Origin: Turneriella sp.
Lineage (GTDB): Bacteria > Spirochaetota > Leptospiria > Turneriellales > Turneriellaceae
DNA: 64,000 nucleotides
Assembly: GCA_965279515.1 (NCBI GenBank)
Contig: CBDIID010000003.1
Span: forward strand, 4,032,001 to 4,096,000
Direction: 5' to 3'
In this document: piece by piece, positions 34,487-55,447 of the stretch
Layout: each line of letters starts with the position of its first letter
How positions within the stretch are numbered: the stretch's first letter is position 1
Translations under genes and position numbers: made by a program
Notes under the pieces: model-generated
Seen by the model: the letters and a program-made list of their open reading frames with translations, nothing else
The model's database searches: none
Told to the model about the DNA's origin: nothing

Positions 34487-34657
34487 CTAGGGTTTTATTC
34501 CCTTCTCTTTCATTTCCTGTAATAGTTTTGCCGGATAGCCCGGACGACAAGGGCAGTTTTTCTGGTGCTGGCGATGCCAATCAACCCGCTGCTCGAATGT
34601 AGCATTCTTAGGCATGATGTTCTTCATATGCCAGACTTTATTGATTTTTGAAGTCAT
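34487..34657 (-). CDS. small protein with H-x2-H-x3-C-x-C motif (56 aa; not in the ORF track)
   Basis: RBS AGGAGAAG; MTSKINKVWHMKNIMPKNATFEQRVDWHRQHQKNCPCRPGYPAKLLQEMKEKGIKP; 20 bp downstream of pfkB. Confidence 0.75.
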   Translation of the reverse strand: MTSKINKVWHMKNIMPKNATFEQRVDWHRQHQKNCPCRPGYPAKLLQEMKEKGIKP

Positions 34658-34677
34658 GAGTTCTCTTCTCCTGCGCT

Positions 34678-35643
34678 TCAGCGCGCATGCAGATTAAATA
34701 CCTTATCCCGGCTGTCTTCGGCGGGCATCTGGCGGTAAAGTTGCCGGGCATCTTCGGCATGGAATAGCTCCGACCCGGCGTTCATCGTCGCAGCGGTACC
34801 GCAGGCGACACCAAAGCGAATGGCTTCAGAGAGCGTTGCCCCGGAAACCAGCATGTGAATGATGCCAGCCACCAGGCTGTCGCCGGCACCCACTGTGCTC
34901 AATTTTTTCACGGCAGGTGCAGCAACGTATTCGCTGAAATCGTGGCTAACCAAAAGCGCACCTTCGGCGCCGAAAGATACGACAACGATCTTGCACGCGC
35001 CGCTTTCAACGAGGCTGCGCGCAGCTGCTTCTGCCGTATCCCTCGTTAGCTTGGGCTGGCCTGTGAGTTCCGCGAGTTCCGATAAATTGGGTTTGATAAG
35101 ATAGGGGCGCTGCGCGACCGCGTGCCGAAGAGCAGTACCCGAGGTATCCACGGCGCAGCGAATACCACGCCGGTTTGCCGATTCCACAATGCGGGCAAAA
35201 AAATCTTCGCCAAATCCGCGCGGCAGGCTGCCGCTTGCCACGATAAACAGCGGGAAAGGCCGGATTGACTCCAGCAAATCCAGCATCTCGTCCTGGGTTT
35301 CATCCGGCATCGCGTCCGATGGCATGACAAAACGGTACTGTTTTCCCGTTGTATTTTCGAACAGCGTCAGGTTTTCCCGCGTTTCCGTGCCATGGGCTGC
35401 GACAGCATGAAATACGATGCGGTTTTGCCTTAACAGCTGCATCAGCAAATCGCCATTACGTCCACCCGATGCCAGAATCGCCTGTGCATCCATCCCGAGG
35501 GATACCAGGGCTTTTGCCACGTTGATGCCTCCGCCGCCGGCTTCAATTTTCACGCTGCTGCAGCGCATTTTTATGTCCGGCTGCAGAACTTCCGTCGAGA
35601 CATCTTTATCGAGACATGGATTGGGTGTAACCGTGACAACCAT
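34678..35643 (-). CDS. pfkB: PfkB family (1-/6-phosphofructokinase) hexose kinase
   Basis: VTVTPNPCLD, GGGGINVA, IKPNLSEL, STVGAGD; ATG 35643. Confidence 0.9.
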   Translation of the reverse strand: MVVTVTPNPCLDKDVSTEVLQPDIKMRCSSVKIEAGGGGINVAKALVSLGMDAQAILASGGRNGDLLMQLLRQNRIVFHAVAAHGTETRENLTLFENTTGKQYRFVMPSDAMPDETQDEMLDLLESIRPFPLFIVASGSLPRGFGEDFFARIVESANRRGIRCAVDTSGTALRHAVAQRPYLIKPNLSELAELTGQPKLTRDTAEAAARSLVESGACKIVVVSFGAEGALLVSHDFSEYVAAPAVKKLSTVGAGDSLVAGIIHMLVSGATLSEAIRFGVACGTAATMNAGSELFHAEDARQLYRQMPAEDSRDKVFNLHAR

Positions 35644-35644
35644 G

Positions 35645-36457
35645 CTAAGACAGCAAATAGCCGCCGTCGACGACGATGGTTTCCCCGGTAATATACCGCG
35701 AGGCATCGCTTGCAAGAAAAAGAACTGTCGCGGCAATATCGTCCGGCGTGCCTTGTCTTCCCATGGGGATCCGCGCCGTGAAGCTCTTCATTATATCTGC
35801 CATTTTTGCCGGAGCCGCATTCTCGGTGTTCACGATCGCAGACATAATTTTTGCCGCGCCGGGAGTTTCTATTCCACCGGGCGCCACAGCATTCACCGTA
35901 ATACCATGCGCCGACAGTTCGAGCGCCATTGACCTGGTCATCATCAGCATTCCGCCCTTCGACGCATCATAATGCACGAGATTGCCTGAGGGGTGCAGCG
36001 AATCGATCGAGGAGATATTGATTATCTTTCCGGGATTACCCTTTGCCTTCATCGCCATTGCCGCCTGCTGGGCATAAAAGAAAGCACCTTTCAGGTTGAT
36101 ATCGATCACCTTGTCCCAAAGCTCTTCACTTGTTTCCAGGAGCGGCGAAAATGGGAATATACCGGCATTATTCACGAGAATATCCAAGTGCGCGTAAGTT
36201 TCCATGGTCTTATTCACCGCACTCTTGATATCGCTGACCCGGCTTGCGTCGGCCACCACATAAGAGACTTTTCTGCCTGCGGTTTTCAGCGAAGCGCTCG
36301 CGGTTTTGCAGGCTTGTTCGTCTACATCCGCAATCATTACCGAAGCTCCCGCCTCAGCCAAACGGTCTACAATGCCAAGGCCGATGCCCATGGCGCCACC
36401 CGTAACAAGAGCCGTTTTTCCGCTCAAGTCAAACATCTCGCTGATATTCTTACGCAT
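35645..36457 (-). CDS. short-chain dehydrogenase/reductase
   Basis: TGGAMGIG, NNAG, YDASK, VDGG; RBS GAGGT. Confidence 0.92.
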   Translation of the reverse strand: MRKNISEMFDLSGKTALVTGGAMGIGLGIVDRLAEAGASVMIADVDEQACKTASASLKTAGRKVSYVVADASRVSDIKSAVNKTMETYAHLDILVNNAGIFPFSPLLETSEELWDKVIDINLKGAFFYAQQAAMAMKAKGNPGKIINISSIDSLHPSGNLVHYDASKGGMLMMTRSMALELSAHGITVNAVAPGGIETPGAAKIMSAIVNTENAAPAKMADIMKSFTARIPMGRQGTPDDIAATVLFLASDASRYITGETIVVDGGYLLS

Positions 36458-36487
36458 ATTTACCTCTTTCAATTGAATTGTTTAATC

Positions 36488-36554
36488 ATTATAGCCAGAA
36501 AAACCGCGCGGTCAATTCGGGTCGATACCGGCCAATGCGCGGACATTTACGTGG
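36488..36554 (-). promoter_or_regulatory. island operator 1 (degenerate) + promoter of SDR-pfkB
   Basis: Minus strand: CCACGTA-aatg-TCCGCGC, 21 bp, TTGACC-16-TATAAT. Confidence 0.65.
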
Positions 36555-36596
36555 TTTATAATGCCCGGCTGAGCCTGCACAGGCTGTTTTTGGGCA

Positions 36597-36664
36597 GCAC
36601 GTATTAATACCCGGAAATTCGGGGAATACGGGCAATTGACGCTCCACGATTTCCGGTATAAAAT
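36597..36664 (+). promoter_or_regulatory. island operator 2 + leaderless promoter of HDOD-cyclase
   Basis: GCACGTA-ttaa-TACCCGG, 21 bp, TTGACG-17-TAAAAT, ATG at 36671. Confidence 0.75.
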
Positions 36665-36670
36665 CAAAGA

Positions 36671-37555
36671 ATGACAAGCGAGCTTTTGACTTTAGAGGGA
36701 CTGGAAGTGACGCTGCGCAGCATGCACCTGCCGTTTCAGCCGCAGGTACTGTCGGCTATATTGCAGCTCAGGGAAGATACGCGCATGAACTTCGGCGAGC
36801 TTGATCGCCTGATTCGGGTTGATCAGAATATCGCCTCGCTGGTTCTTAAGGTCGCCAATTCCAGTTTTTATTCGCGCGGGCAGGAGATCCGCACGCTGCC
36901 CCAGGCGATCGGCATGATCGGCTTCAGGACAATCGTTTCCCTGGTTTCAGCAGTCGCGACAAAAGAGATATTCAGAAGCGGCGATTACGCGCGGTTTAAA
37001 AAGTATGTCTGGCAGCATTCGCTCGCGGTCTCCATCATCGGCAGAATTCTCTCTGAAAAGCTTGGGCTGACGGAACTGAAAGAAGAGGTATTTATCGGCG
37101 GCCTGCTGCACGACATCGGCAAGGTTGTCCTGAACCAGATCGACCGCCGGAAGTTTATCGCCGTACTCGATCAGACGCTGGGCTCGGAGAATCCCTTTGG
37201 GCAGGCGGAATTGGAGCACTTCGGAGTAGATCACGCTTCGGTCGGACAACTGATCATTAAGATATGGAATTTACCGTTGGTATACCGCGAGGTCACGGTT
37301 TTTCAGAATAGTCCCGGCAATCCCGGTATCATGAAGTTGCCGGAGAAGGACCGCAATATCATCCATGTTGTCGGGCTGGCCAATCTCATCGCTAAAATCC
37401 ATAATTTCGGCCATGCAGAGAAGGCTGTCGATGATCTGCTGGGAGAGTTCTATCGATTGCTGCGCATCGGTCCCGAACATGAAATCCACAAAATTCACTG
37501 GCCGACGGCAGTGACGGACGATCCGCATTTGCAGATGCTTTCCATGGTTCACTAA
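36671..37555 (+). CDS. HDOD domain protein
   Basis: VLKVANSSFY, AIGMIG, WQHSLAV, GLLHDIGK, DHASVG, WNLP. Confidence 0.92.
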   Translation: MTSELLTLEGLEVTLRSMHLPFQPQVLSAILQLREDTRMNFGELDRLIRVDQNIASLVLKVANSSFYSRGQEIRTLPQAIGMIGFRTIVSLVSAVATKEIFRSGDYARFKKYVWQHSLAVSIIGRILSEKLGLTELKEEVFIGGLLHDIGKVVLNQIDRRKFIAVLDQTLGSENPFGQAELEHFGVDHASVGQLIIKIWNLPLVYREVTVFQNSPGNPGIMKLPEKDRNIIHVVGLANLIAKIHNFGHAEKAVDDLLGEFYRLLRIGPEHEIHKIHWPTAVTDDPHLQMLSMVH

Positions 37556-37558
37556 GTT

Positions 37559-39316
37559 ATGCGTCCAGAAGTATCAGCAGCAACCGGCGCAGAAATGCAG
37601 ACCCATTTTGAGATCACGGCGTACGAACTTTATTCCGGTGTTCAGGAAAAGATCAAAGAGGAAATCCGCACACTATTGACCGGCCTGGGGAAACCGCGGC
37701 TCGCCGGCCCGGTCACGACCATGGTGCTCGAACTTGCTGCCAATGCCCTCAAGGCGCTCTATAAGTATGTCTTTTTCGAGTACGCTATCAAGGAATCCGG
37801 TCTTGCCGACCTGCCGTACGACGATTGGCATAATATTCTTAAAGAAGAGCTGGATACAAACAAAGCGCGCAATTTTGAAAAAATCTGCCGGGAGAAATCG
37901 CTCCGCCTGACGCTGCGCTGTCAGACGCGCGACGACAAACTGCGGTTCGAGGTTGAAAACGATGGCTCGCCATCGGCAAAGGAGCGGAAAGCGCTGCGCG
38001 CCATGCTCAAAGAAGCTTCGCATGCACAAAACCTTCAGGCATACCTTGCCATGGACGAAGGCGAAACAAGCGAAGTCACTGTCGAAGAAAAAGCAGGTTT
38101 TGGGCTCAGTCTCATTTTTCTGACGCTCACGGGCCTCGGGCTTGACCGGCATAATTTTCGTATACAGGTAAACTCCCGATCGACGACGGCGATTCTCGAA
38201 ATACCGTTTAGTGCTCTTGATGATAACGGCAGCGGCAAAATCCGCGTTCTGGGGACAGGCGAAGAAACCGGAAAAACTATCCTGGATGTGATTGATAACC
38301 TGCGTTTCGGCGTTGTCGTTTTCGACGAACGTGGCAATATACTCGAAGTCTCGGAAGCACTGCTCGAACAATTGAATCTGCCTGCCGATAAATCCGGGCA
38401 TTTCCATGAGCTGCTTAAGGCCCGCTTCACCGAAGATATTTTTTCAGGTCCATACAGCGTGCCCCTCGTCAATTCGTTCGAGAATTACCGCCTGAAAGTA
38501 CCGCGCTACGGTGATGATAAGGAAATTCTTTTCAATATCAGCGGTGTTCTGAATCCGCAGACCCGTCGCGTCGAGACCATCTGGCAAACCATCAATCTCG
38601 GTAAGGATATGGGAACGCTTTCGGAAGGTTCGATCTTCGAAAACGTCCACATCCAGAATATCGTCCGTCCCTATATCCCAGGCATGATTCTTGAAAAAGC
38701 GCATGCATCACTGCGCTCAGGGCGTTTTGTACTGGAGAATGAGCATCGTGAGGCTACGATTTTTTTTCTCGATCTTATCGGGTTTACCGCAATCAGTGAA
38801 AACCTTCCGCCCGCGAAAGTCATCGATCTGCTGAACCTCGCCATGGGTATTGCAGTAAAATCCATCGAAGGGAACCAGGGTTCGATCGATAAATTCATCG
38901 GCGACGGGATCCTGGCGATCTTTCCGGGCCCGTTACCGGCCGTCGTCGCGGCTTTTGAGATCCAGAATAATTTCAAGGGATTGAACGAATACCGCCGCGT
39001 CAGCGGTAGTCAACCCATTGAATTACGCATTGGCATCAATACGGGCATGGTCATTCTCGGCAGTGTGGGCACAAAGCGCCGTATGGACTTCACCGCCCTG
39101 GGCGATGTCGTCAACACAGCATCGCGCATCGAAAAATCTTCTGCTGCTAACAGTGTGCTCGTGAGTGATACCACCTATTCAAAAATCAAGGACCAGGTCA
39201 TTGTGAGCCGCTCATTTCAGCAAAAAGTAAAAGGTAAACAGAATGAAATTACCCTGCACTTTCTGAAGAAAGTTACCTATGAACACGCTGGCGTGACGAG
39301 GGTGCTGGAGTTGTAA
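37559..39316 (+). CDS. class III adenylate cyclase with N-terminal HATPase-like and PAS-like domains
   Basis: ELAANALKA, ENDG, AGFGL; PAS-like GVVVFDERGNI; LDLIGFT, DKFIGD, TALGDVVNTASR. Confidence 0.88.
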   Translation: MRPEVSAATGAEMQTHFEITAYELYSGVQEKIKEEIRTLLTGLGKPRLAGPVTTMVLELAANALKALYKYVFFEYAIKESGLADLPYDDWHNILKEELDTNKARNFEKICREKSLRLTLRCQTRDDKLRFEVENDGSPSAKERKALRAMLKEASHAQNLQAYLAMDEGETSEVTVEEKAGFGLSLIFLTLTGLGLDRHNFRIQVNSRSTTAILEIPFSALDDNGSGKIRVLGTGEETGKTILDVIDNLRFGVVVFDERGNILEVSEALLEQLNLPADKSGHFHELLKARFTEDIFSGPYSVPLVNSFENYRLKVPRYGDDKEILFNISGVLNPQTRRVETIWQTINLGKDMGTLSEGSIFENVHIQNIVRPYIPGMILEKAHASLRSGRFVLENEHREATIFFLDLIGFTAISENLPPAKVIDLLNLAMGIAVKSIEGNQGSIDKFIGDGILAIFPGPLPAVVAAFEIQNNFKGLNEYRRVSGSQPIELRIGINTGMVILGSVGTKRRMDFTALGDVVNTASRIEKSSAANSVLVSDTTYSKIKDQVIVSRSFQQKVKGKQNEITLHFLKKVTYEHAGVTRVLEL

Positions 39317-39437
39317 AGTCGCTGCACCTCTCCGGCGATGCTGGCGAGGGCCTCGTTTTGCACTCCTTGCATCGAGACGAGAGGATCGATAGTTGAGACT
39401 TCAACCGATCCGCTTTGTGTTTCACGTACTAGTACCC
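39317..39437 (-). pseudogene. remnant of a DUF302-like gene (C-terminal part)
   Basis: VLVRETQSGSVEVSTIDPLVSMQGVQNEALASIAGEVQRL resembles DUF302 C-termini; no matching N-terminal half. Confidence 0.6.
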
Positions 39438-39489
39438 GATTTATCGGAGAATTCCCCGGATTGACTTTTGCTGAAATTTTATTTAAGCG
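39422..39489 (+). promoter_or_regulatory. island operator 3 + promoter
   Basis: TCACGTA-ctag-TACCCGA, 21 bp, TTGACT-17-TAAGCG (weak -10). Confidence 0.7.
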
Positions 39490-39544
39490 TGCTATGCTCC
39501 GGTTCACCACCGGGTGCAGAAATAAAGCAACAGGAGATCAGTAT

Positions 39545-39940
39545 ATGCAAATAGTACATGTAAAAGTAAAGCTACTATGGGCGGTAAGCCTATTTATGAC
39601 CCTATCTATCGGCGCGGAAGGCATGGGGCAGGGTAAAGGGCTGAAAATGGGAGGGCCATGCCGTGAAGACCGAATGAAACATTGCTCGCATGCCATGGGG
39701 GATCATAGCGGGATGCTGCAATGCATGAACGACCACGAAAAAGATCTGAGTAATGCGTGTAGGGACCATAAGAATGCAATGAATGCGGATATGAAAAGTG
39801 CGCACGCTGCCTGTATGCCAGATATCGAAAAATTCTGCGCCGATGTTAAACCCGGTCAGGGCAGGATGCGTGATTGCCTCAGAAAGAATAAAGCAGGGCT
39901 TTCTCAAACCTGCAAAGATGCGCATAAAAATATCCAGTAA
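39545..39940 (+). CDS. exported cysteine-rich repeat protein
   Basis: RBS AGGAG, signal peptide, two C-x2-D-x4-C...C-x11-C repeats; Met/His rich. Confidence 0.8.
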   Translation: MQIVHVKVKLLWAVSLFMTLSIGAEGMGQGKGLKMGGPCREDRMKHCSHAMGDHSGMLQCMNDHEKDLSNACRDHKNAMNADMKSAHAACMPDIEKFCADVKPGQGRMRDCLRKNKAGLSQTCKDAHKNIQ

Positions 39941-39963
39941 AAAATAGCTCTGAAAGGTCATAC

Positions 39964-40131
39964 ATGGAAGAACTGTACTACTGGGAAACTTCAGTGAAGT
40001 GGACCGGCGAACGGAAGGGTGTGATGACATTTCCGGCAATTGCAGAAAACATAAAACCGGATTTTGTCCCGTTTAAATCAAAGTTCAAGGCCCAACCCAA
40101 AAGTCTGAGAAAACAAGAAAATAACCGTTGA
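39964..40131 (+). pseudogene. truncated OsmC-like gene (N-terminal remnant; not in the ORF track)
   Basis: MEELYYWETSVKWTGERKGVMTFPAIAENI resembles OsmC-family N-termini, then diverges and stops at 55 aa with no Cys. Confidence 0.5.
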
Positions 40132-40145
40132 AAAGGAGAAATAAA

Positions 40146-40754
40146 ATGAAAAAATTACAAGTTGTGTTTTTAATTGGGGCGATGGCGAGCAGCAAGCTGT
40201 TCGGCGCTGCAGATTCAGTAGCTGCGCCCCCAGCAACCGCCAGCGAAGTGAGTTCAAAACCAAAAACCGGCAGGTATCTCATGGCAGACATCACCGGGTA
40301 TGGCGGCAGTTTGTTCGCGCTTTACGGTAATGGGAGTTCCTTGAACGATACGGCGAGCGTTGGCTTGCGGGGCTTCGTTCATTTTGGCAACGCATTCAGA
40401 CTCGGCGCCATTGGCACGATGACGGGACGCACCAATACGGGTAATAATACCCGCGAAATGACGGGTAGTCTTGGGATATTTGGCGAGTTCTTATTGCGTT
40501 TTGACCCACTGATTATTGGCCTTGGTGTAAAAGCCGCTGGTGCTGGTTATAGCTCACATGACCGGGGCACCCAGGTAAGCGGGACAAGTTATGGTTATTT
40601 CAATGCCATGCCATTTGCAGAGCTTGAAATGCGGCTTTTTGAATGGGTTTCGCTTAGTATTTACGGCGGCTACGACTATTTCGTAGGCAACAGTGCAAGC
40701 CCGAACGTTTCGCAGCCGGTTGTGGGTGTGGCTGTGACATTCGCGCGCTACTGA
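40146..40754 (+). CDS. putative outer-membrane beta-barrel protein
   Basis: RBS AAGGAG, signal peptide, alternating Gly/aromatic strands, terminal aromatic residue. Confidence 0.7.
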   Translation: MKKLQVVFLIGAMASSKLFGAADSVAAPPATASEVSSKPKTGRYLMADITGYGGSLFALYGNGSSLNDTASVGLRGFVHFGNAFRLGAIGTMTGRTNTGNNTREMTGSLGIFGEFLLRFDPLIIGLGVKAAGAGYSSHDRGTQVSGTSYGYFNAMPFAELEMRLFEWVSLSIYGGYDYFVGNSASPNVSQPVVGVAVTFARY

Positions 40755-40833: not shown

Positions 40834-40901
40834 TCAGGTAAAACTACCTGATAAGTCCTGTATATCACCGCCTTGACTTGGCCGCTTTTTTAAGTTATCA
40901 C
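40834..40901 (+). promoter_or_regulatory. island operator 4 + leaderless promoter of the M50 operon
   Basis: Perfect TCAGGTA-aaac-TACCTGA, 21 bp, TTGACT-17-TATCAC, ATG at 40907. Confidence 0.78.
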
Positions 40902-40906
40902 AAACC

Positions 40907-41992
40907 ATGAAATGGTCACTTTATTTTGCTGAGGTCCGCGGCATTAAAATTTATGTCCACTGGAGCTTTGTCATACTCGTGACGTGGGTTACCTTCGCGG
41001 CATGGACCAGAAATCACAGTTGGAATCACGCCCTTTTTGCCACTGCGTATATCCTGCTGCTCTTTGTCTGCGTTGTCCTGCATGAATTTGGGCATGCGCT
41101 AACCGCGCGGCGTTTTGGCATCCGTACGCAGGACATTACTTTATTGCCCTTCGGCGGCGTCGCGCGGATGGAAAAAATGCCCGAAAAGCCCAGCGAAGAG
41201 TTTCTCGTCGCCATTGCTGGCCCCGCAGTCAATGTTGTCATTGCATCCGCACTGCTGGCAGTGCATTACTTCTTTTCAATACCGCTCCGCTTTCAACCGG
41301 ATTTAGACCTGTTAACGGGAATAAACCTGCTGACGTTACTCATGTTCGTCAACGCATTCATGGCGGTCTTCAATCTCATACCGGCTTTCCCGATGGACGG
41401 CGGCAGAATACTGCGCGCTGCCCTGGCAGCGAAATTTCCCCACCCGCAGGCAACGCAAATCGCCGCCCGTATCGGGCAGGCCTTTGCCGTGGTCTTCGTG
41501 CTCGTGGGCGTATTCAGCAATATCTGGCTTGTTTTCATCGGCATTTTTATCTACATGGGGGCGGGCGGCGAAGCGGCGCAAGAGGCCATAAACTCTGAAC
41601 TTGCGCGCTTTCGGGTGCGGGATCTGGTCATGACGGATTTCCCCACTATCCGGGATACAGACCTTCTGGGCGCGGGCATCCGGCTGTCGCTGAGAAGCCA
41701 GAGCAAAGAGTTTCTTGTCGTCGATGCCGTCGGAAATCTGCAGGGAACGCTGACACCCATCGAAATGCTGGCGGGTCTTTCTGAGCGCGGGGAGAACACC
41801 CCGATCCGCCAGGTGATGCGCACCGGTCTGCCGATGCTTTCACCCGACATGACCATCGTCGAAGCCCTGCGCAAGATGACAGAAAACAATGCCCAGATGC
41901 TGCCGGTCGGAACCGGGGATCAGCTCATCGGAATCATCGATATGACAAATATTTCTGAATTTCTGCAGGTACGCAGGCTCATCCAGAAATGA
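40907..41992 (+). CDS. site-2 (M50) zinc metalloprotease with CBS pair (Rip3-like)
   Basis: HEFGH, AGPAVN, FNLIPAFPMDGGR, C-terminal CBS domains. Confidence 0.93.
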   Translation: MKWSLYFAEVRGIKIYVHWSFVILVTWVTFAAWTRNHSWNHALFATAYILLLFVCVVLHEFGHALTARRFGIRTQDITLLPFGGVARMEKMPEKPSEEFLVAIAGPAVNVVIASALLAVHYFFSIPLRFQPDLDLLTGINLLTLLMFVNAFMAVFNLIPAFPMDGGRILRAALAAKFPHPQATQIAARIGQAFAVVFVLVGVFSNIWLVFIGIFIYMGAGGEAAQEAINSELARFRVRDLVMTDFPTIRDTDLLGAGIRLSLRSQSKEFLVVDAVGNLQGTLTPIEMLAGLSERGENTPIRQVMRTGLPMLSPDMTIVEALRKMTENNAQMLPVGTGDQLIGIIDMTNISEFLQVRRLIQK

Positions 41993-42075: not shown

Positions 42076-42510
42076 ATGACACACGATTTACTGATCGCCG
42101 TATGCGGAAGAACCGGGGCACGTTTTTTCACGGGGGATTCCATGCTCACGGGAATACATCCGATTCACAAGCTGGAAAATCCCCAGGGCAGATTGCAGGC
42201 GCATTCACTCGACAGCGATAAAGCGGGGGAGAGCGGTTCGAGTAATTACAGCGGGCATAATTCATTCTCACCCGAGCACAATGCGGTTGACCACGAAGCG
42301 ACCCGGTTTGCGGGGGAAGTTGCGGATTTTCTTAACCGGGCACGTGTCGAACATACTTGCCGTGAAATTCTTATCGCAGCAGATGCTAAATTCACCGGCA
42401 AACTCAAGGAGCACCTGGATAAGGATACAGGCAGAATGGTGCGCAACTATGTTATCCAGGATCTGATGAAGACCGAAGACAGGGACCTGCTCGCACACCT
42501 GCGCCCGTAA
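42076..42510 (+). CDS. host-attachment (AtsE)/baeRF family protein
   Basis: RBS AAGGAG; ARFF, ENPQGR, RFAGEVADFL, AADAKFTGKL, DL. Confidence 0.8.
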   Translation: MTHDLLIAVCGRTGARFFTGDSMLTGIHPIHKLENPQGRLQAHSLDSDKAGESGSSNYSGHNSFSPEHNAVDHEATRFAGEVADFLNRARVEHTCREILIAADAKFTGKLKEHLDKDTGRMVRNYVIQDLMKTEDRDLLAHLRP

Positions 42511-42514
42511 GGTA

Positions 42515-46128: not shown

Positions 46129-46133
46129 TGTGT

Positions 46134-46556
46134 TTACCGCGGTGGTAATTTGACAATGCTGAGCCAGAAGTCCTCTATCATTTTTATGACCTGGATAAAC
46201 TTCTCGAAGTCGACGGGTTTATTTATGTAACAATTGGCATGGAGATTATAAGTGCGGACGATATCCTGCTCGGCTTGTGACGTTGTCAGTATGACGACGG
46301 GGATTCTTTTCAGTTTTTCAGTATTCTTGATATGATCCAGGACTTCAACCCCGCTGACGCGCGGCAAATTGAGATCGAGCAGAATTAGGTCGGGGTGTGG
46401 ATTTGTTCCGGTATCGTTGTCGAGAAAAACAATCGCTTCTTCGCCGTCTTTCGCGATGTTCAGATGGTTTGATACCCGCCCTTCTTTTAATGCTTCTATC
46501 GTCAGGCGAATGTCCCCGGGATTATCTTCGACAAGCAGTATTTCGATAGATTTCAT
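46134..46556 (-). CDS. single-domain response regulator (Rcp1-like)
   Basis: VEDNPGD, LLDLNLP, LTTS, ANCYINKP, FWLSIVKLP. Confidence 0.92.
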   Translation of the reverse strand: MKSIEILLVEDNPGDIRLTIEALKEGRVSNHLNIAKDGEEAIVFLDNDTGTNPHPDLILLDLNLPRVSGVEVLDHIKNTEKLKRIPVVILTTSQAEQDIVRTYNLHANCYINKPVDFEKFIQVIKMIEDFWLSIVKLPPR

Positions 46557-46580
46557 AGGTGTACTCCTGACGGATGGCGC

Positions 46581-48020: not shown

Positions 48021-48035
48021 TTCAGGATTTTCCGT

Positions 48036-48428
48036 TCAGTCTGAATCGGAAAACGAATCCTGTCCGGCAAGAACCTTTCGGATAGTGACAATCAGATTTT
48101 CAAAAACGGCGTCTTTGGATACGAAGGCTGCAGCTCCCTTTTCTTTGGCAACGCGACGGAAAATTTTGTCTTCTTGTCCCGAAACGATGATCGTGCGGAT
48201 CTCGGGATAGAGTTCAGAGATTTTTGCGAGCACGGTGAATCCGTTCATCTTTGGCATCGATATATCCAGTAGAATAAGGCTGCATTGAGGGTCGATTTGG
48301 GCCTCCAGCACAGCAATACCGTCCGAAAATTCGGCAATCACGCGGAATTCAGAATTGTCATGCAGATGCTGGCGCAATATTTTCCTGAAGGCGGCGTGGT
48401 CGTCGACGATGATGATACCCGGTTTCAT
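48036..48428 (-). CDS. stand-alone REC domain (NarL-type, no DNA-binding domain)
   Basis: VDDH, LLDISMP, FVSK. Confidence 0.85.
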   Translation of the reverse strand: MKPGIIIVDDHAAFRKILRQHLHDNSEFRVIAEFSDGIAVLEAQIDPQCSLILLDISMPKMNGFTVLAKISELYPEIRTIIVSGQEDKIFRRVAKEKGAAAFVSKDAVFENLIVTIRKVLAGQDSFSDSD

Positions 48429-48440
48429 TTTCAAAAGCAA

Positions 48441-48508
48441 TCCATATCATGAAACATCCGGCGGGTCAAGGCGGCAAAATACATGGAGAAACACGTATTT
48501 ATACGTGT
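48441..48508 (-). promoter_or_regulatory. island operator 5 + promoter of the sensor operon (possibly bidirectional)
   Basis: Perfect ACACGTA-N4-TACGTGT at 48491-48508; minus strand: 21 bp, TTGACC-17-TATGGA with TGn extension; plus strand TTGCGG also 21 bp away. Confidence 0.72.
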
Positions 48509-48588
48509 GAAATTGGCCCGGTAGAGTCGTTGCGGGCCCGCATTTTTGAGTGGACGGCGGGTTTTATTTCTATGCTCAAATAGCAAAA

Positions 48589-49239
48589 ATGGATAACTCG
48601 CCCGGGAAAAAACGCATTATTCTTGCGGATGATCATGCGATTCTGCGTGCTGGTCTCAAGAATCTCATTGCCGAAGACAGTGAATTTCTTGTGGTCGCGG
48701 AAGCGAATGACGGCGAGTCGCTGCTCGCGAGGCTGAAATCCACACCCTGCGATCTTGTCATCATGGACATTTCGATGCCCAACCTGAACGGCCTCGCAGC
48801 GCTCGAACAGATCAAAAAAATCTACCCGAAAATGAAAGTGCTGATCTTGAGCATGCACAAAGAACGCGACTATGTAAAGAACGCTATGGTTAAGGGTGCG
48901 GACGGGTACATGTTTAAGGACGCCGTATTTGACAAACTGCTTTCATCGGTAAAAGATATTTTTTTGGGCCAGAAAGCGTTTTCCTCCGAAGTCATGACAA
49001 TATTCCTCGACGAATATGTGCACGCGCAGGAGGGGCAATCCACCCTGGATAACCTGACCAAACGGGAGCGTGAAGTCTTGCGCGCTCTCGTCAAGGGGCT
49101 CACGAACAAGGAGATCGCCGATCAGCTCGACATCAGTGCGCGTACGGTCGAGGGGCACCGGGCAAATCTCATGGATAAACTAAACGTGAAGAACATGGCG
49201 GAGCTCATGAAAACGGCGATTTCTCTCGGTATCAACTGA
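48589..49239 (+). CDS. NarL/FixJ-family response regulator
   Basis: ADDH, MDISMP, LSMH, LTKREREV, ISARTVEGHRANLMDKL. Confidence 0.93.
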   Translation: MDNSPGKKRIILADDHAILRAGLKNLIAEDSEFLVVAEANDGESLLARLKSTPCDLVIMDISMPNLNGLAALEQIKKIYPKMKVLILSMHKERDYVKNAMVKGADGYMFKDAVFDKLLSSVKDIFLGQKAFSSEVMTIFLDEYVHAQEGQSTLDNLTKREREVLRALVKGLTNKEIADQLDISARTVEGHRANLMDKLNVKNMAELMKTAISLGIN

Positions 49240-49259
49240 CCCGGCGCCTGGCGGCGATA

Positions 49260-49910
49260 TCAAACAAGTCCTTTGTCGACCGCATAACGAACCAGGTCTG
49301 TAACATTCCCGAATTCCAATTTCTCCATGATGCGGCTGCGGTAGGCCTCGACCGTGCGCGAGCTGATATCCAGCTCTTCGGCTATCACAATGTTTGTCCA
49401 GCCGCGGGCGAGAAAGACCAAAACTTCTTTTTCTCGTTTGGTGAGCAAATTCAGCGAGATATGGCTTTCTTTAAGAACCCGGCGCTCGTCCGTTGCTACC
49501 GTCAGTAGCTCTTTAGAAAAGGATTTATGCCCGGCGGCGATGGATTTAATCGCCGAGATCAGTTTCTCAAAAGCCTCGTCTTTTAAAAGATAACCCTGGA
49601 CCTTTTTTGCCAGCGCTTTCTGCACAAATTCAGGTTCCTTATGCATGCTCAAAATCAGAATTTTCAGATCCGGGTAAGATTCCCGGATAGCAGATAATGC
49701 TTCCAGGCCGCTGAGTTCAGGCATGGATAAATCGAGAATCAGCATGTCGCACGGCTTCTCGCCCAGTATTTCGAGCAGGCGCCTGCCATTTTCCGCTTCG
49801 GCAACAACCGTCATGGTCGGATTTTCATTGATGAGGTTTTTCAGGCCGGTGCGCAGTATGGGATGGTCGTCGACGAGAACAATGCGCAGTTTTCGGATCT
49901 CATTGAACAT
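49260..49910 (-). CDS. NarL/FixJ-family response regulator
   Basis: VDDH, LDLSMP, LSMH, LTKREKEV, ISSRTVEAYRSRIMEKL; ATG 49910. Confidence 0.93.
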   Translation of the reverse strand: MFNEIRKLRIVLVDDHPILRTGLKNLINENPTMTVVAEAENGRRLLEILGEKPCDMLILDLSMPELSGLEALSAIRESYPDLKILILSMHKEPEFVQKALAKKVQGYLLKDEAFEKLISAIKSIAAGHKSFSKELLTVATDERRVLKESHISLNLLTKREKEVLVFLARGWTNIVIAEELDISSRTVEAYRSRIMEKLEFGNVTDLVRYAVDKGLV

Positions 49911-50010
49911 GGCTGTGTTTTGGGTGTGAATCCGGCCGCTATATCTTACGTCGAGCAGATATCCAGTCTTTTGTGAGAAAGAGAAAATAGCTGCCCGCAT
50001 GTACAAAAGG

Positions 50011-50049
50011 GAATACACCGGGCTGGGTTTAAAACCGCCCGGTGTATTC
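50011..50049 (-). terminator. putative terminator of the ppsA-sqr-tusE-dsrE operon
   Basis: 13-bp IR GAATACACCGGGC...GCCCGGTGTATTC followed on the minus strand by CCTTTTGT. Confidence 0.6.
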
Positions 50050-50068
50050 AAATGCGAGGAAATGATGC

Positions 50069-50539
50069 TCAGGTAAAAACAATATGCCCGCCGGCAGCTT
50101 TCTCATAGAATTCGCCGACGGTAATAATTTCCGAAACCTGTTCGCAGAAATCTTCTTTTTTGAGTTTGAACATGTCGACCGAGGCCTTACATCCATAAAG
50201 ACCAGCGCCTGAATCGTGAATCATCTGGATGAATTCGGGTATCGGTGGAATATCCAGCTCCGACATCTGTTTTTTCATCATATGCGTTGCGAGTCCTGAC
50301 ATGCCCGGCAGCATGCCTAGCAGCGTCGGCATATGCATACCGGGATTTCCCACCGTTGCCACCTTGATGTGGTCCATCGTCTTTTTCACGACCGCGTCGA
50401 GGCCAAAAAAGGTGAAGAAGACATTCACCGTGATTCCTTCCATGCGGGCGCCGTTGGCCATGATGAGCCCGGGGTAAACTCCGTCGAGCGAACCCTTGCT
50501 GATGATAATGGATACCTTTTCTTTGCTTAAATCTGACAT
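50069..50539 (-). CDS. DsrE2/DsrH-like sulfurtransferase family protein
   Basis: FFTFFGL, LYGCKASVDM, GGHIVFT; RBS AGGAG. Confidence 0.88.
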   Translation of the reverse strand: MSDLSKEKVSIIISKGSLDGVYPGLIMANGARMEGITVNVFFTFFGLDAVVKKTMDHIKVATVGNPGMHMPTLLGMLPGMSGLATHMMKKQMSELDIPPIPEFIQMIHDSGAGLYGCKASVDMFKLKKEDFCEQVSEIITVGEFYEKAAGGHIVFT

Positions 50540-50556
50540 AATTTTCTCCTATGTTC

Positions 50557-50871
50557 TTAAATACACCCTACAGGCTTGGGGACGCCGGCGATCTTCGCTG
50601 CCTTTTTTCCCGGGCCGCCGGGAAAAAGAGCATAGAGTTCCTTCGTATCCACACCGGAAAATTTTGTAATCCGCCTGATCGTCGGCGATTTGCCGGTTTC
50701 CTGAAAATCCTTGCGCATGAAGCGGATCACCTGCCAGTGCCGGTCACTGAGCGTGATACCCTCGTTCTTCGCAATCGTGCCGGCCAGATCTTCTGACCAG
50801 TCACCGGGATTCACGAGGAATCCCTCATCGTTCACCGGTGGTGATTGTATTGTTGTGGTTTCCGTTATCAT
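50557..50871 (-). CDS. TusE/DsrC family sulfur relay protein
   Basis: DEGFL, WSEDLA, HWQVIRFMR, LYALFPGGP, AGVPKPVGCI. Confidence 0.92.
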   Translation of the reverse strand: MITETTTIQSPPVNDEGFLVNPGDWSEDLAGTIAKNEGITLSDRHWQVIRFMRKDFQETGKSPTIRRITKFSGVDTKELYALFPGGPGKKAAKIAGVPKPVGCI

Positions 50872-52124
50872 CTGATCTCCTTATTTTTTCCGCGCATACT
50901 CATGCGGGCTTGGACAAAAGGAATTCCGCGTCCTTTGAGCAGCACATACCAATAGACAAAACGAAACAGCAGTTTTCCCAGGTGGTTAAGCCAGCTCTCT
51001 TTCAGAAGAGCAAACGGACCGATCACGGGGACAGGGAAGCGACCGGGCAGGGGTTCTTGCTCGTAGTTAAAATCGACCATAAACCCTTTGTGAAATCCCG
51101 ATTCGATAAAGCAGTTTGCATGCCCATCGAAGTTTTGGGGCCAAGGCCGATTCTCTATGTAGGCCACAAGGTTGGCTGTCAGCACTTCAGCCTGGAAGTG
51201 CGCGACAGAGCCCGCTTTCGAAGAGGGCAGGTCGGTGGCGTCGCCCAGTACAAAAATATTGGGTTTGATTTTGGATTGCAGTGTGCCGGGGTCGGTGGGA
51301 ATAAAATGCAGTTCGTCGCCGAAGCCTGATTTTTCGACGGCAGGCGAACCCATGTTGGTCGGCACTGTCACCAGCAGATCGTAAGGCACCTCGGTGCCGC
51401 CATACGAGATCATTTTTTTACCGGCAGGGTCGATTTGCTCGATATGAAATTCAGGTACAACGCTGATATTGCGGCGTTCGAGCAGATCCCCTAACACCTT
51501 TGCGGCGACAGGTTTTGTAAAAGCTCCGGAAAGCGGCGTTACGTAGCTCAGATGTGTTTTGCTGCGGATGCCTTTTTTTGTCAGAAACCAGTCGGCCAGC
51601 AGCGTGAACTCGAGCGGCGCCACGGGGCATTTGATCGGCATTTCTGTAATGTGTACAACGAGATCTCCCCCCGTGAAATTCTGTAATGCGGGAAAAAGCG
51701 CGGCTGCGCCCGCAGGGGAATAGAAATCAAAAACATTTTTTAACCAACCATCGCCTTCCAGCCCCGCAGTTTCGGAAGGCACCGTACGGCAACCCGTCGC
51801 AACAATGAGTATGTCATAAGCCAGCTGGATGCCACCCTGCAGGTGTACTGTATCTGTCTCCGGCGAAATGGCCTCGATCCCGGTGTTCATCCAGCTCACC
51901 CTCTTGGGCAAAAGATTTTGTTTTTTCCGGGTGATTTGCGGCAGGGTATATTTGCCGAACGGCACAAATAGCAGGCCGGGCTGGTAGATATGGTCGGGGC
52001 TTTCGTCCACCAGGGTGATATGCCAGTCGCGCAGGGATTTCTGCCTGCACAAATGATGCGCCATGATGGTGCCGGCAGTACCTCCGCCCAGAATCAGTAT
52101 TTTCTTACCCGCCATGTTTTTCAT
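50868..52124 (-). CDS. sqr: sulfide:quinone oxidoreductase (type III-like)
   Basis: GGGTAG, HIYQPGLLF, KCPVAPLE, GDAT, SKAGS, FDGHANCF. Confidence 0.85.
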   Translation of the reverse strand: MKNMAGKKILILGGGTAGTIMAHHLCRQKSLRDWHITLVDESPDHIYQPGLLFVPFGKYTLPQITRKKQNLLPKRVSWMNTGIEAISPETDTVHLQGGIQLAYDILIVATGCRTVPSETAGLEGDGWLKNVFDFYSPAGAAALFPALQNFTGGDLVVHITEMPIKCPVAPLEFTLLADWFLTKKGIRSKTHLSYVTPLSGAFTKPVAAKVLGDLLERRNISVVPEFHIEQIDPAGKKMISYGGTEVPYDLLVTVPTNMGSPAVEKSGFGDELHFIPTDPGTLQSKIKPNIFVLGDATDLPSSKAGSVAHFQAEVLTANLVAYIENRPWPQNFDGHANCFIESGFHKGFMVDFNYEQEPLPGRFPVPVIGPFALLKESWLNHLGKLLFRFVYWYVLLKGRGIPFVQARMSMRGKNKEIR

Positions 52125-54508
52125 GCGGGTTTCGGGCGGTGTTCAATTTCGGCAGCCTGTTTTTTGACCGCGATAAACCGCTCAGGGTCGACAGAGATGG
52201 AATCGATGCCTGTCTCAATCAAAAATTCACAAAACTCCGGATAGTCGCTCGGCGCCTGGCCGCAGATTCCCACGGTAATGCCGGCCTGATGCGCCTTAGT
52301 GATGGTTTGCCGGATCAGTTCTTTGACTGCCAGGTCACGCTCATCGAAAAGATAGGCGAGGCGATCTGAGTCACGGTCAATACCCAGCGTGAGTTGCGTG
52401 AGATCGTTACTGCCGATGGAAAAGCCATCAAACTTTTCCGCAAATTTATCCGCGAGGATTGCATTCGAGGGAATCTCGCACATCATATAAAATTTCAGCC
52501 CCTCATCGCCGCGGTGCAGGCCATGCCGGCCCACTTCGGCGAGTACCTGGTCTGCCTCGGCCAGCGTGCGCAGAAACGGTATCATGATGTGGATATTGGT
52601 AAATCCGCACTCGGCGCGGGCGCGTTTGACGGCCGCACATTCCAAGGCGAATCCCTCCCGGTATGCCTCGCTGTAATACCGCGAAGCGCCCCGGAAGCCG
52701 ATCATGGGATTTTCTTCGGCCGGTTCAAAATATTTTCCGCCGACGAGATTGGCATACTCGTTGGTCTTGAAGTCGCTCATCCGCAGAATAACCGGATTGG
52801 GAAACCGCGATGCGGCGATGCTGCAGATGCCCGAGCAGAGTTTTTCGACAAAATAATCTTTTTGATCGGCAAACCCCTGTGTGAGGCCGGCTATCTGTGC
52901 AACAACTTCCGCATCCGTAACAAGTTCCGGGTGGACCAAAGCCATCGGGTGAATCTTGATGCGGTCGCTGATGATAAATTCCATGCGCGCCAGGCCAATA
53001 CCGTCGGCAGGTAACTGCCACCAGTCGAGCGCCGTATCGGGGTTCGCCATGTTGATCATGATTTTCGTGCGGGTGTCGGCGAAATGGTCGATGCGCTCGC
53101 TCGCGATCGCGAAGTTAAGTTTTCCGGCAAAAATTTTACCGGTATTGCTTTCTGCGCAGGAAAGTGTAATCTCCTCGCCCTGCGCGATGCTGCTCGTGGC
53201 ATTTCCGCAGCCGATAATCGCGGGGATGCCCAGCTCGCGGCTGATAATCGCGGCATGCGACGTTCGGCCGCCGTGGTCTGTGACGATGCCCGCCGCCTTC
53301 TTCATGATCGGAACCCAGTCGGGGTCCGTCATCGTCGCAACGAGTATGGATCCTTCGCGGAAGTCGGCGAGATCTTTTACGTCGCGCACGACACACGCTT
53401 TGCCGGCGACGATCTTACTGCCGATAGCAAGGCCGCTTGCCAAAAGCCGACCTTTGTCGAGCATGCGGTATTTTTCAAAGATCCCGGTGTCGCGCCTGGA
53501 TTGTACGGTTTCAGGACGCGCCTGGACGATATAGAGTTTGCCCGTAAAGCCATCCTTCGCCCATTCGATATCCATCGCTTTGCCGTAATGCTGTTCAATG
53601 ACCATGGCCCAGCGGGAGAGATCGATGATTTCAGAATCCTTGAGCACAAACGCAGAACGTTCATAGATACTCGTCGGTTGTGTTTTGACAGAATGCGCCG
53701 AGTCGCGTGTATAGATAATCTTTGTTTCTTTTGATCCCGTAGTTTTTTGCAAAATGGGTCGGTCGGCTTTCCCGATCAGGGCTTTGAATACGCGGTATTC
53801 GTCGGGATCAACCAAACCCTGTACGACGCTTTCGCCCAAACCCCAGGCCGCATTGATGGTTACGTTGCCGGGAAAACCGTTCTCCGTATCGATCGTGAAC
53901 ATGACCCCAGCACCGGCAAGGTCGGAGCGGATCATTTTCTGGATACCGATGGAAAGATAGACCTTCATATGATCAAAACCCTTGCTTTCGCGGTACGAGA
54001 TCGCCCGATCGGTAAAAAGCGAGGCATAACACTGCAGGCAGGCTGTGAGCAGTTTTTTATCGCCGCGGATATTCAGGTATGTCTCCTGCTGGCCGGCGAA
54101 GGAGGCATCGGGCAGGTCTTCCGCGGTCGCGCTGCTGCGCACGGCGACGTCGGTTTCGGCTGCCTGGTACTCCGCCGAAAGTTTGGTATAACACTGAGAA
54201 ATCTCGCCGGCGATGTGCCCGGGAAAGCTGCCGCCCAGGATCAGGTCGCGAATGCTTTTTCCTGCCACTGACAGGGAAATTTTTCCGCTTTTCATTTGCT
54301 GCAGAAGGGCAGTAATGGGAGCGGAGAGATTATTCTTTTCCAGAAACTCGCGGTAAGCGAGGGAGGTCGTTGCGTAGCCGAAGGGAACCGGGATACCTTT
54401 GGTCTTCAGGTTACGCGTCATCTCGCCCAGAGAGGCGTTCTTGCCGCCGACGATGCCGACGTCCTCGATGCCGATCTCGTCGAACCAGCGTATGTAGTTG
54501 CCTTTCAT
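52121..54508 (-). CDS. ppsA: phosphoenolpyruvate synthase
   Basis: GGKNASLGEM, RSSATAEDLP, QARPET, GGRTSHAAI, DFKTNEY, SIGSNDLTQ. Confidence 0.97.
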   Translation of the reverse strand: MKGNYIRWFDEIGIEDVGIVGGKNASLGEMTRNLKTKGIPVPFGYATTSLAYREFLEKNNLSAPITALLQQMKSGKISLSVAGKSIRDLILGGSFPGHIAGEISQCYTKLSAEYQAAETDVAVRSSATAEDLPDASFAGQQETYLNIRGDKKLLTACLQCYASLFTDRAISYRESKGFDHMKVYLSIGIQKMIRSDLAGAGVMFTIDTENGFPGNVTINAAWGLGESVVQGLVDPDEYRVFKALIGKADRPILQKTTGSKETKIIYTRDSAHSVKTQPTSIYERSAFVLKDSEIIDLSRWAMVIEQHYGKAMDIEWAKDGFTGKLYIVQARPETVQSRRDTGIFEKYRMLDKGRLLASGLAIGSKIVAGKACVVRDVKDLADFREGSILVATMTDPDWVPIMKKAAGIVTDHGGRTSHAAIISRELGIPAIIGCGNATSSIAQGEEITLSCAESNTGKIFAGKLNFAIASERIDHFADTRTKIMINMANPDTALDWWQLPADGIGLARMEFIISDRIKIHPMALVHPELVTDAEVVAQIAGLTQGFADQKDYFVEKLCSGICSIAASRFPNPVILRMSDFKTNEYANLVGGKYFEPAEENPMIGFRGASRYYSEAYREGFALECAAVKRARAECGFTNIHIMIPFLRTLAEADQVLAEVGRHGLHRGDEGLKFYMMCEIPSNAILADKFAEKFDGFSIGSNDLTQLTLGIDRDSDRLAYLFDERDLAVKELIRQTITKAHQAGITVGICGQAPSDYPEFCEFLIETGIDSISVDPERFIAVKKQAAEIEHRPKPA

Positions 54509-54514
54509 AGGCTA

Positions 54515-54582
54515 TGCTTAGACTATTTTCCGGCCGACTGCAAGTCGGCAGGTTACTTTGAAAATCGGGTAGAAGTACGTGA
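54515..54582 (-). promoter_or_regulatory. island operator 6 + leaderless promoter of ppsA
   Basis: Minus strand: TCACGTA-cttc-TACCCGA, 21 bp, TTGCAG-17-TAAGCA, ATG at 54508. Confidence 0.72.
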
Positions 54583-54608
54583 ATATATCAGTCTATGCGA
54601 TGTGGCAG

Positions 54609-55211
54609 CTACGACGTAGCTCCAGGCTCTTTTCTATCATCCGGCCTGGGATATTGATTTTCCCAGGGCCACATTCTGGCCTCCGGGCTCTGCGGGTATT
54701 CCTCGGCAATTTCACTCATCGCGGCGTGAAAAACATCTTTATCCCGGTATCTAAGGTAATAGGCCATGCCTTTGAGCATAATCAAATGGGCAATGCGGGG
54801 ATTTGCCGGGTATTTTTTAATGAGGGCTTCGAGAATATCGGCGGCTTTGCCGTAGTCACCCCTGGGTAAAAGTAGCCTAACCTCGCCAATCCCCAGCGCT
54901 ACCAGGAAATCCTCAGAATTCAAAGCTCCTTCCATGAACCACACGGCCTCGCCGGAGCGATTGAGAAAATAAAAAGCAGGCGTCCAAACGGCGTTATAAC
55001 GCGCGCGGATATCAGGGTTTTTGAAAATATTCAACCGTACCGGAATAAATTTCCGGTTTACCTCATCGGCGACTGTTTCTGCGGAGAAGACCTCATGGTC
55101 CATTTTCAAACAGCCCGAACAATCCGGGCGAAAAAACTCAAGTAAAACCGGAAGCCGTGATTCCTTTGCTTTTTGCAGGCCAGCTTCGTAATTTTCAATC
55201 CAGTTGAGCAT
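54609..55211 (-). CDS. thioredoxin-fold (CSGC) + TPR-like protein
   Basis: FFRPDCSGCLKM, WTP cis-Pro, TPR-like helices (YP...YPQS). Confidence 0.82.
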   Translation of the reverse strand: MLNWIENYEAGLQKAKESRLPVLLEFFRPDCSGCLKMDHEVFSAETVADEVNRKFIPVRLNIFKNPDIRARYNAVWTPAFYFLNRSGEAVWFMEGALNSEDFLVALGIGEVRLLLPRGDYGKAADILEALIKKYPANPRIAHLIMLKGMAYYLRYRDKDVFHAAMSEIAEEYPQSPEARMWPWENQYPRPDDRKEPGATS

Positions 55212-55426: not shown

Positions 55427-55447
55427 CGGAAAAAACAATCTAAATTG

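Follow-up and report, generated by a model that had tools for sequence, protein, structure and literature searches.

The 64,000-nucleotide window analysed here lies on the 4.84-Mb main contig (C3) of a Turneriella genome that is 99.99% complete (G000), and its stretch 34487-55211 holds a gene cluster encoding a putative haem-based sensor relay, two NarL/FixJ-family regulators and a varied cargo of metabolic, transport and signalling genes. We propose that this cluster is the core of a gas-responsive regulon found in some Turneriella, and that low O2 probably activates it. Co-regulation of the cluster by the relay appears very likely, and low-oxygen induction is what we infer from the sequence. 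We take it to be a real regulon, probably one of low oxygen, in which both the operator and the combination of sensor and relay are new. Positions are window coordinates unless a locus or genome identifier is given, and comparisons within the genus are to a set of 13 Turneriella congeners (G001, G002, G008, G011 and others).

An initial annotation of the letters had treated the region as a regulon-like group of genes, and a common, precisely placed putative operator supports their co-regulation. The palindrome CRSGTA-N4-TACSYG precedes seven transcription units within the cluster or next to it, the relay operon included, and is placed 21 nt ahead of a TTG(AC) -35 box. A repeat search gave a 22-nt match between the upstream regions of the Cys-rich gene and ppsA, and the pattern was drawn from the sites upstream of these two genes and of the M50 protease gene. 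The G000 chromosome has nine exact palindromes, seven of them at 36598-61022; in eight of the nine, both remote ones included, TTG lies exactly 22 nt past the palindrome core. By consensus and alignment, the gap between palindrome and -35 box appears to hold a degenerate second site. A TA comes 16-17 nt after the -35 box, and the ATG is 72-75 nt from the start of the site in 11 of the 19 sites listed. Such sites, upstream of the -35 box, occupy the position of an activator, as described for FixJ at fixK (PMC4999443) and for tandem Dev boxes (PMC3177182). When the palindrome was permuted, one of 719 versions reached five hits in a like span and 19 reached three. The start codons at 36671, 40907, 54508 and 60965 are only 5-6 nt past the putative -10 box, which suggests leaderless or near-leaderless mRNAs.

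Full-length orthologues of the sensor kinase (79% and 74%) occur in two of the 13 congeners, G001 and G008, and the operator-bearing [2Fe-2S] ferredoxin gene is found in the same two. Exact matches to the composite site number nine in G000, two in G001, two in G008, one in G011 and none in the ten others of the 14 genus genomes, so that G001 and G008 hold four of the five exact matches outside G000; counts fall near the control once one mismatch is allowed. Because exact composite matches concentrate in relay-bearing genomes, they support a single regulon composed of the cluster, the ferredoxin gene and about five remote genes, under an operator that would be new. A matrix built from three G001 and G008 sites puts the seven local sites at ranks 1, 2, 6, 7, 8, 15 and 16 of 9,681,356 positions; only the two best-ranked have orthologues among the training sites. 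The SDR-ppsA-sqr operon of G001 is also preceded by a site, one absent from the training set. With the full matrix, a score gap (26.7 vs 19.3) follows the twelfth site, and five remote members are added: a HAMP cyclase, two CrtI-like flavoproteins, a flavodoxin-fold reductase and a protein of unassigned function. Two of these have orthologues or nearest homologues without the site in G001, G002, G007, G008 and G011, and a third has no match in five genomes.

Some genes score low or have no site. In the direction of narL1 the palindrome and TTG are present and the matrix score is only 6.9; the thioredoxin gene has no operator by matrix score and probably sits outside the regulon. The ppsA, sqr, M50 and HDOD counterparts fetched from relay-less genomes have operator scores below 11, and among 329 loci (2.86 Mb, redundant) no genome besides G000, G001 and G008 reaches a score of 20. 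Away from the clusters, almost every bare-palindrome match in G001, G008 and G016 is within an open reading frame (ORF). Two further places in G008 drew our attention. Operator-like sites (scores 36, 25 and 19) surround a dnaK-dnaJ and groEL cluster on G008:C82 (L214:334-6050) that adjoins CheB/CheR, a PAS-HisKA_3 kinase and another NarL, and the chaperones may be G008 cargo. On G008:C142 (L034:830) a weaker site (21.9) stands before a glycogen/starch synthase-family gene divergent from narL2.

The cluster is predicted to encode an intact three-tier relay, which bears out the haem-PAS kinase cascade ending in NarL/FixJ regulators that had been read there. The sensor kinase has two PAS domains and lacks a GAF domain in Pfam searches. 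In comparison with PDB entries, PAS-A is matched to the haem domain of FixL (E 2e-35), its His67 and Arg87 aligning with the His and Arg of FixL; we take the FixL equivalents to be H200 and R220, presumably the proximal haem His and the distal Arg. Both residues are invariant in all three sensor-kinase orthologues. The best PDB matches of PAS-B are 3ewk, NifL and then, lower, Aer, and because we take these to be FAD-binding, PAS-B presumably has a flavin cofactor. The kinase core is phytochrome-class, the phospho-acceptor residues of the relay are present by inspection, and the receiver at 46134-46556 is one that we would label Rcp1-like. In the PDB, the match of NarL1 to E. coli NarL (6e-32) is better than that to DevR (1e-28), the family being common to both. 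An AlphaFold model from a 3-row alignment had a mean pLDDT (predicted local distance difference test) of 55.9, too poor to be used.

Similar arrangements occur elsewhere. A second set of a kinase, a HisKA_3 kinase and a NarL at G000 C3:4697551-4701831 is a candidate for cross-talk. Other lineages have the layout of kinase, receiver and hybrid kinase under a different N-terminal sensor (L317, L318, L319 and L084), which suggests that the relay serves as a modular chassis. Where the four-gene layout occurs in another family (three genomes), the kinase match begins only beyond PAS-A and the operator is absent.

In the mechanism that we favour, O2 on the FixL-type haem would keep the sensor kinase off, with the flavin-type PAS adding a redox input. 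A fall in O2 would lead to phosphorylation of His271, passage of phosphate to the receivers and activation of the hybrid kinase, which would phosphorylate NarL1, NarL2 or both. These would bind the tandem sites and activate sigma70-type promoters, that of the relay included; like FixT (PMC7078487), the single receiver that heads the operon may have a damping effect on this loop. Outputs would include carbon flux via PfkB, PpsA and the short-chain dehydrogenase (SDR), sulfide removal via sulfide:quinone oxidoreductase (SQR) and sulfur carriers, cation movement by the ATPase, translation damping by baeRF12 and altered cyclic-nucleotide signalling through two cyclases. For low oxygen as the trigger speaks the induction of PfkB and a cation ATPase under low oxygen in both DosR and lxa (PMC4082495, PMC3721108).

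Several observations weigh against a low-oxygen regulon of this kind: (i) the bare palindrome is not enriched genome-wide, with 9 matches vs 12 for a reversed control. (ii) Three sites alone defined the palindrome pattern. (iii) Neither the HSP20 genes (three genes at two loci, best operator score 0.6) nor the three haem-copper oxidase loci have an operator nearby. (iv) The cargo most like that of DosR (PfkB, the ATPase and baeRF12) was not found in the relay-bearing G001 and G008, an absence that is soft because these genomes are 84% and 86% complete. (v) The FixL arginine beside the haem His helix is Asn73 in PAS-A. (vi) Two further NarL paralogues in G000 carry similar recognition helices. 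(vii) A reciprocal kinase logic is documented for NmpU and NmpS (PMC11841059). The main doubt concerns the sign of the response, because NmpU inactivates the hybrid kinase NmpS (PMC11841059). The regulon could be the same with its sign inverted: the sensor would be active in the absence of O2, receiver phosphorylation would turn the hybrid kinase off, and the genes would be on in air or upon re-oxygenation, as an oxic or oxidative-stress regulon. We regard this as unlikely. The flavin oxidoreductases among the remote members (two CrtI-like, one flavodoxin-fold) would suit it, as would the lack of any high-affinity oxidase or universal stress protein (USP) gene with the site and the presence of SQR, which requires an oxidised quinone pool. 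However, PfkB, the cation ATPase, M50-CBS and baeRF belong to families associated with low oxygen or dormancy in the cited accounts of DosR and lxa (PMC3721108, PMC4082495, PMC6514570).

Sulfide or cellular redox, instead of O2, is an improbable main signal; in this reading the haem and flavin PAS domains would report on sulfide or on reduction of the respiratory chain, in a regulon centred on sulfide removal. The SQR-TusE-DsrE2 module stands behind the operator in G000 and G001, and PAS-B resembles flavin redox sensors; sqr of Bacillus licheniformis is controlled by a PAS kinase and NarL-type regulator that respond to sulfide, and the haem sensors DosP and DosS respond to sulfide (PMC9918477). 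Against this, PAS-A closely resembles that of O2-sensing FixL and retains the distal Arg, the G008 sqr module has no operator despite the relay, and most regulon members are not sulfur genes. Finally, that a regulator from elsewhere reads the operator, with the cluster a gene accretion at a tRNA hotspot and the relay its passenger, is very unlikely: native NarL paralogues sharing the RTVE-HR helix do occur in 12 of the 13 congeners, many cluster genes have dispersed counterparts and relay-less G011 has one exact composite match, but composite sites track the relay across the 14 genomes and sit at the relay promoter in G000 and G001, and among the 329 loci the scores of 20 and above are confined to the three relay genomes.

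Returning to the proposed low-oxygen regulon, its genes are collected in Table 1. From left to right these are the 56-aa ORF, pfkB and SDR genes (minus strand); the HDOD and cyclase genes, the Cys-rich and beta-barrel-like genes, and M50-CBS, baeRF12 and the P-type ATPase (plus strand); the hybrid kinase, receiver, PAS-PAS kinase and leading receiver of the relay operon (minus); narL1 (plus); narL2, dsrE2, tusE, sqr and ppsA (minus); the thioredoxin-TPR gene; and tRNA-Arg. All of the families named in the initial annotation, namely PfkB, SDR, M50-CBS, baeRF, P-type ATPase, PpsA, thioredoxin, the sulfide module and the PAS kinase cascade, are present and intact at 34678-55211 by Pfam and NCBIfam. 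To that listing we add the HDOD, cyclase, Cys-rich and beta-barrel-like genes, the common operator and the ferredoxin gene. Beyond the left end are a membrane-bound LuxR-type protein (32029-33171) and an SrkA-type kinase (33453-34481), the latter a core gene.

Table 1. Genes and putative operators of the cluster and its surroundings in window coordinates; domain calls were made with Pfam and NCBIfam on window ORFs.
Feature	Position	Strand	Basis or remark
56-aa small protein	34487-34657	-	Atlas score 0.91 to a hypothetical-protein cluster; 20-nt gap to pfkB
PfkB / Pfk-2-type hexose kinase	34678-35643	-	Pfam, NCBIfam
SDR	35645-36457	-	Pfam, NCBIfam; 72% orthologue in G001 cluster
Putative operator, one core mismatch	36537-36554	-	SDR-pfkB operon; 21 nt ahead of TTGACC..TATAAT
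Putative operator	36597-36614	+	Before HDOD-cyclase
HDOD protein	36671-37555	+	Pfam; genus-wide gene, putative operator in front
Adenylate/guanylate cyclase	37559-39316	+	Pfam; genus-wide gene, putative operator in front of HDOD-cyclase
Putative operator	39422-39439	+	Before Cys-rich gene
Secreted Cys-rich-repeat protein	39545-39940	+	PF00839
Possible 55-aa remnant	39964-40131	+	Translation; matched by no library searched
Outer-membrane beta-barrel-like protein	40146-40754	+	Contains a palindrome at 40437 without -35 box
Putative operator, perfect TCAGGTA-N4-TACCTGA	40834-40851	+	Before M50-baeRF12-ATPase
M50 site-2 protease with CBS domain	40907-41992	+	Pfam; HEFGH and NLIPAFPMDG motifs kept
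baeRF12 / Host_attach single-domain protein, 144 aa	42076-42510	+	Pfam
P2-like cation P-type ATPase	42515-45079	+	Pfam, NCBIfam; DKTGT, PEEF motifs
Hybrid kinase: receiver, HisKA_3, HATPase (His163)	45052-46128	-	Pfam
Single receiver, type following phytochrome-class kinases	46134-46556	-	Pfam
Sensor kinase: FixL-type haem PAS (His67, Arg87), flavin-type PAS, phytochrome-class core (His271)	46581-48020	-	
Single receiver, leading gene of relay operon (candidate feedback element)	48036-48428	-	Pfam
Putative operator, perfect palindrome	48491-48508	.	Between relay operon and narL1; TTG at fixed distance both sides; kept in G001 (L031:13013)
NarL/FixJ-family regulator 1 (narL1)	48589-49239	+	Pfam
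NarL/FixJ-family regulator 2 (narL2)	49260-49910	-	Pfam; 3' of ppsA operon, same orientation
DsrE2	50069-50539	-	Sulfide module; Pfam
TusE/DsrC	50557-50871	-	Sulfide module; Pfam
Type III SQR	50868-52115	-	Sulfide module; NF049943
Phosphoenolpyruvate synthase PpsA	52121-54508	-	NCBIfam
Putative operator	54565-54582	-	Before ppsA-sqr-tusE-dsrE2
Thioredoxin-TPR protein	54609-55211	-	Pfam; no operator
tRNA-Arg(ACG)	55447-55521	-	Short copy of tRNA 3' end at 55270-55288, by inspection
Thioredoxin-like [2Fe-2S] ferredoxin	60657-60965	-	Outside 34487-55211; co-inherited with relay
Putative operator	61021-61038	-	Before ferredoxin; kept in G001 and G008

Public-run contigs match 42500-62400 in three pieces with zero letter differences, the two long pieces at depth 7-8; the run is possibly the source study itself, so this agreement is not independent. 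Near-identical short pieces of the relay, ppsA and polA (165-326 nt, depth 2-5) occur in two groundwater runs and one drinking-water run.

Among the cargo, PfkB has its closest named relatives in Bacteroidota (about 50%), and the baeRF12 protein has no PDB relatives at E up to 10 except a chance hit. The M50 protein had been called Rip3-like, a label that we take to belong to Rv2625c; its counterparts in congeners (51-53%) are at other loci, and those of HDOD-cyclase (59-62%) have no operator in G011, G002 and G008. The SQR scores 579 bits against the NF049943 cut-off of 525, and its CPVAP and NCF cysteines align with those of solved SQR; a literature search on the SQR-DsrE2-TusE module found no papers. 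A second P-type ATPase of the same subtype (46%) is encoded at G000 C3:1704829-1707285; it is absent from the 13 congeners and is not among the operator matches. The ppsA of the cluster groups with its G001 partner, in a clade separate from the genus-wide copy (tree of 83 rows, 78 of them from 118 database hits). Transfer of this ppsA from outside the genus is not shown, a single Turneriella clade not being rejected by the approximately unbiased (AU) test (26 rows, p 0.49). The genus-wide ppsA is broken into pieces in G011 and G003 (L035:7092-9497, L226:5782-8127), and in four congeners (L048, L226, L259 and L260) it is near a divergent HemN-like gene, a low-oxygen-type association (the HemN-like gene was Pfam-checked at L048 only). 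G000 has no PF00582 match for USP, the control matching in 13 of 14 genomes; cytochrome bd subunit I was not found there, and three haem-copper oxidase subunit I genes are present. PF03007 (Tgs1) gave no match, its control likewise matching none of the 14 genomes.

The initial annotation read the region as an acquired, eroding island downstream of a tRNA, and the position 3' of tRNA-Arg(ACG) is as described. The relay is patchy in the genus and the site variable; several genes have dispersed counterparts in most congeners, at odds with a single acquired block. Erosion finds little in its favour. Coding density is 93%, genes are full length compared with relatives, and the ORF at 34487-34657 looks intact and is probably the end gene of the SDR-pfkB operon; the sole possible remnant, at 39964-40131, may have an OsmC-like start. 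The G+C content of 51.9%, against 53.1% for the chromosome, gives no strong compositional signal. The copy of the tRNA-Arg end is only about 160 nt from the tRNA with none at the far end, partial copies like it stand beside tRNA-Arg in G011 and G007 too, and no integrase was found among the scanned window ORFs. A single recently acquired, eroding island is ruled out by the coding density, the near-mean G+C, the lack of a far att copy and the dispersed counterparts.

Flanking neighbours differ in congeners on both sides of the cluster. The G001 cluster, which comprises the relay and both regulators together with SDR, ppsA, the sulfide module and the ferredoxin gene, is behind tRNA-Leu, on the other side of polA, and adjoins two IS1595 transposase ORFs; these ORFs and the synteny breaks mark variable sites. 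Presence and absence divide the cargo. PfkB and baeRF12 were each found in none of 19 own-family genomes and the P-type ATPase in none of the 13 congeners. DNA matches at other loci exist for HDOD-cyclase in at least 9 of the 13 and for M50, ppsA and dsrE2 in at least 10; the dispersed counterparts of HDOD, cyclase, M50, ppsA and SQR have 48-62% protein identity and no operator in the loci fetched. Because PfkB, the ATPase and baeRF12 were not found in congeners while the M50, HDOD-cyclase, ppsA and sulfide genes are dispersed in most, the cluster is, judged by gene content, a mosaic at a variable tRNA-adjacent site rather than one recent block. The relay, narL2 and the ferredoxin are its conserved core, and the cargo varies among genomes. 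As a separate observation, a comparison of gene order with G011 and G002 points to an inversion, about 63 kb long, at G000 C3 ~4024000-4087500 (window -8000 to 55500), which would have parted tRNA-Arg from a methyltransferase neighbour and placed it beside a hydrolase-polA pair.

Outside the genus, no full-length orthologue above 60% identity was found among 190 genomes of the class, and PfkB and baeRF12 homologues elsewhere in the class stand away from such clusters (12 neighbourhoods fetched). In other phyla, 79 genome loci and 40 metagenome loci gave generic PAS kinases plus one duplicate of a counted locus, and no composite site scoring 20 or more was found at these loci.

These results offer a testable regulon, with sensor, relay, operator and about 12 promoters, for the oxygen response in a free-living spirochaete lineage. 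The initial annotation knew of no such system in Leptospiraceae, and the literature searched has no description of the system or its operator in spirochaetes; supplementary motif tables could hold a similar site. The three relay genomes, with the same operator and different cargo, provide a compact natural case of the assembly of low-oxygen survival regulons and of the convergence of unrelated bacteria upon PfkB, cation ATPases, CBS proteins and release-factor homologues. More tentatively, and with considerable doubt, we suggest that a mobile haem-plus-flavin relay may act as a regulon seed in Turneriella, which on landing gains targets through one promoter design; it may in this way capture both native signalling genes (two cyclases and HDOD) and foreign cargo (PfkB, ATPase and baeRF12). 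If so, G000 would have converged on DosR-like dormancy content without USP, and this spirochaete would possess an oxygen-triggered persistence switch that is tied to cyclic-nucleotide signalling, works through a new operator and yields mostly leaderless transcripts. There is no direct bearing on tuberculosis dormancy or pathogenic Leptospira, because no full-length orthologue above 60% identity was found outside the genus among the 190 genomes of the class.

Known systems share parts of this design. As in FixL-FixJ, a FixL-type haem PAS leads to NarL/FixJ-family output and an 18-bp imperfect palindrome lies upstream of the promoter (PMC4999443), and the putatively co-induced single receiver recalls Caulobacter FixT (PMC7078487). 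The Turneriella relay differs in its phytochrome-class core, extra flavin-type PAS and hybrid second kinase, in having many direct targets instead of fixK and no oxidase targets found, and in a site unlike the FixJ motifs quoted in PMC4999443. NmpRSTU of Myxococcus xanthus likewise combines a haem sensor kinase, single receiver, hybrid kinase and DNA-binding regulator, as an autoregulated relay over an oxygen-related regulon that includes a CBS protein and a P-type ATPase; in contrast, NmpU senses through a protoglobin and is active in O2, the output is a sigma54 NtrC-type activator, and targets include cbb3 oxidase, HemN and a USP (PMC11841059). The NreBC-sqr-pdo system of B. licheniformis also places a PAS kinase and NarL-type regulator over SQR, but this pair is described as sulfide-specific, with a PAS clade apart from haem PAS, a CstR-type repressor and sulfur genes only (PMC9918477).

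The initial annotation had likened the region to the DosR regulon of Mycobacterium tuberculosis, and the likeness holds for architecture rather than identity. Both have a haem sensor acting through a HisKA_3-type kinase step on a NarL-family regulator (PMC4082495), an 18-bp palindrome in strong-plus-weak tandem at the promoter and autoregulation (PMC3177182), and PfkB, a cation ATPase and a ferredoxin among the targets, as family-level matches only (PMC4082495). In Turneriella, however, the haem would be in PAS rather than in GAF-A as in DosS (PMC4082495), the relay is three-tier with two regulators, the genome has no USP and no operator at HSP20, and the half-site T-C-R-S-G-T-A has G5 but A7, where the Dev box needs G5 and C7 (PMC3177182). 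The baeRF12 protein is one domain of 144 aa, whereas Rv2629 is a three-domain aeRF1-like Balon (PMC10901736, PMC6514570). [quoted passage not shown] It differs in having six USPs, alpha-crystallin and an Fnr/Anr-type TGA-N6-TCA motif (PMC3721108), whereas the Turneriella genome lacks USPs and its cluster combines a haem relay and a sulfide module with another palindrome. The lxa paper itself remarks on the PfkB and ATPase overlap with DosR, and because that overlap extends to lxa (PMC3721108), it points to a general low-oxygen gene kit. As read from its sequence, the Turneriella cluster works like DosR and lxa, being sensor-linked with tandem operators and overlapping cargo families, and is a member of neither.

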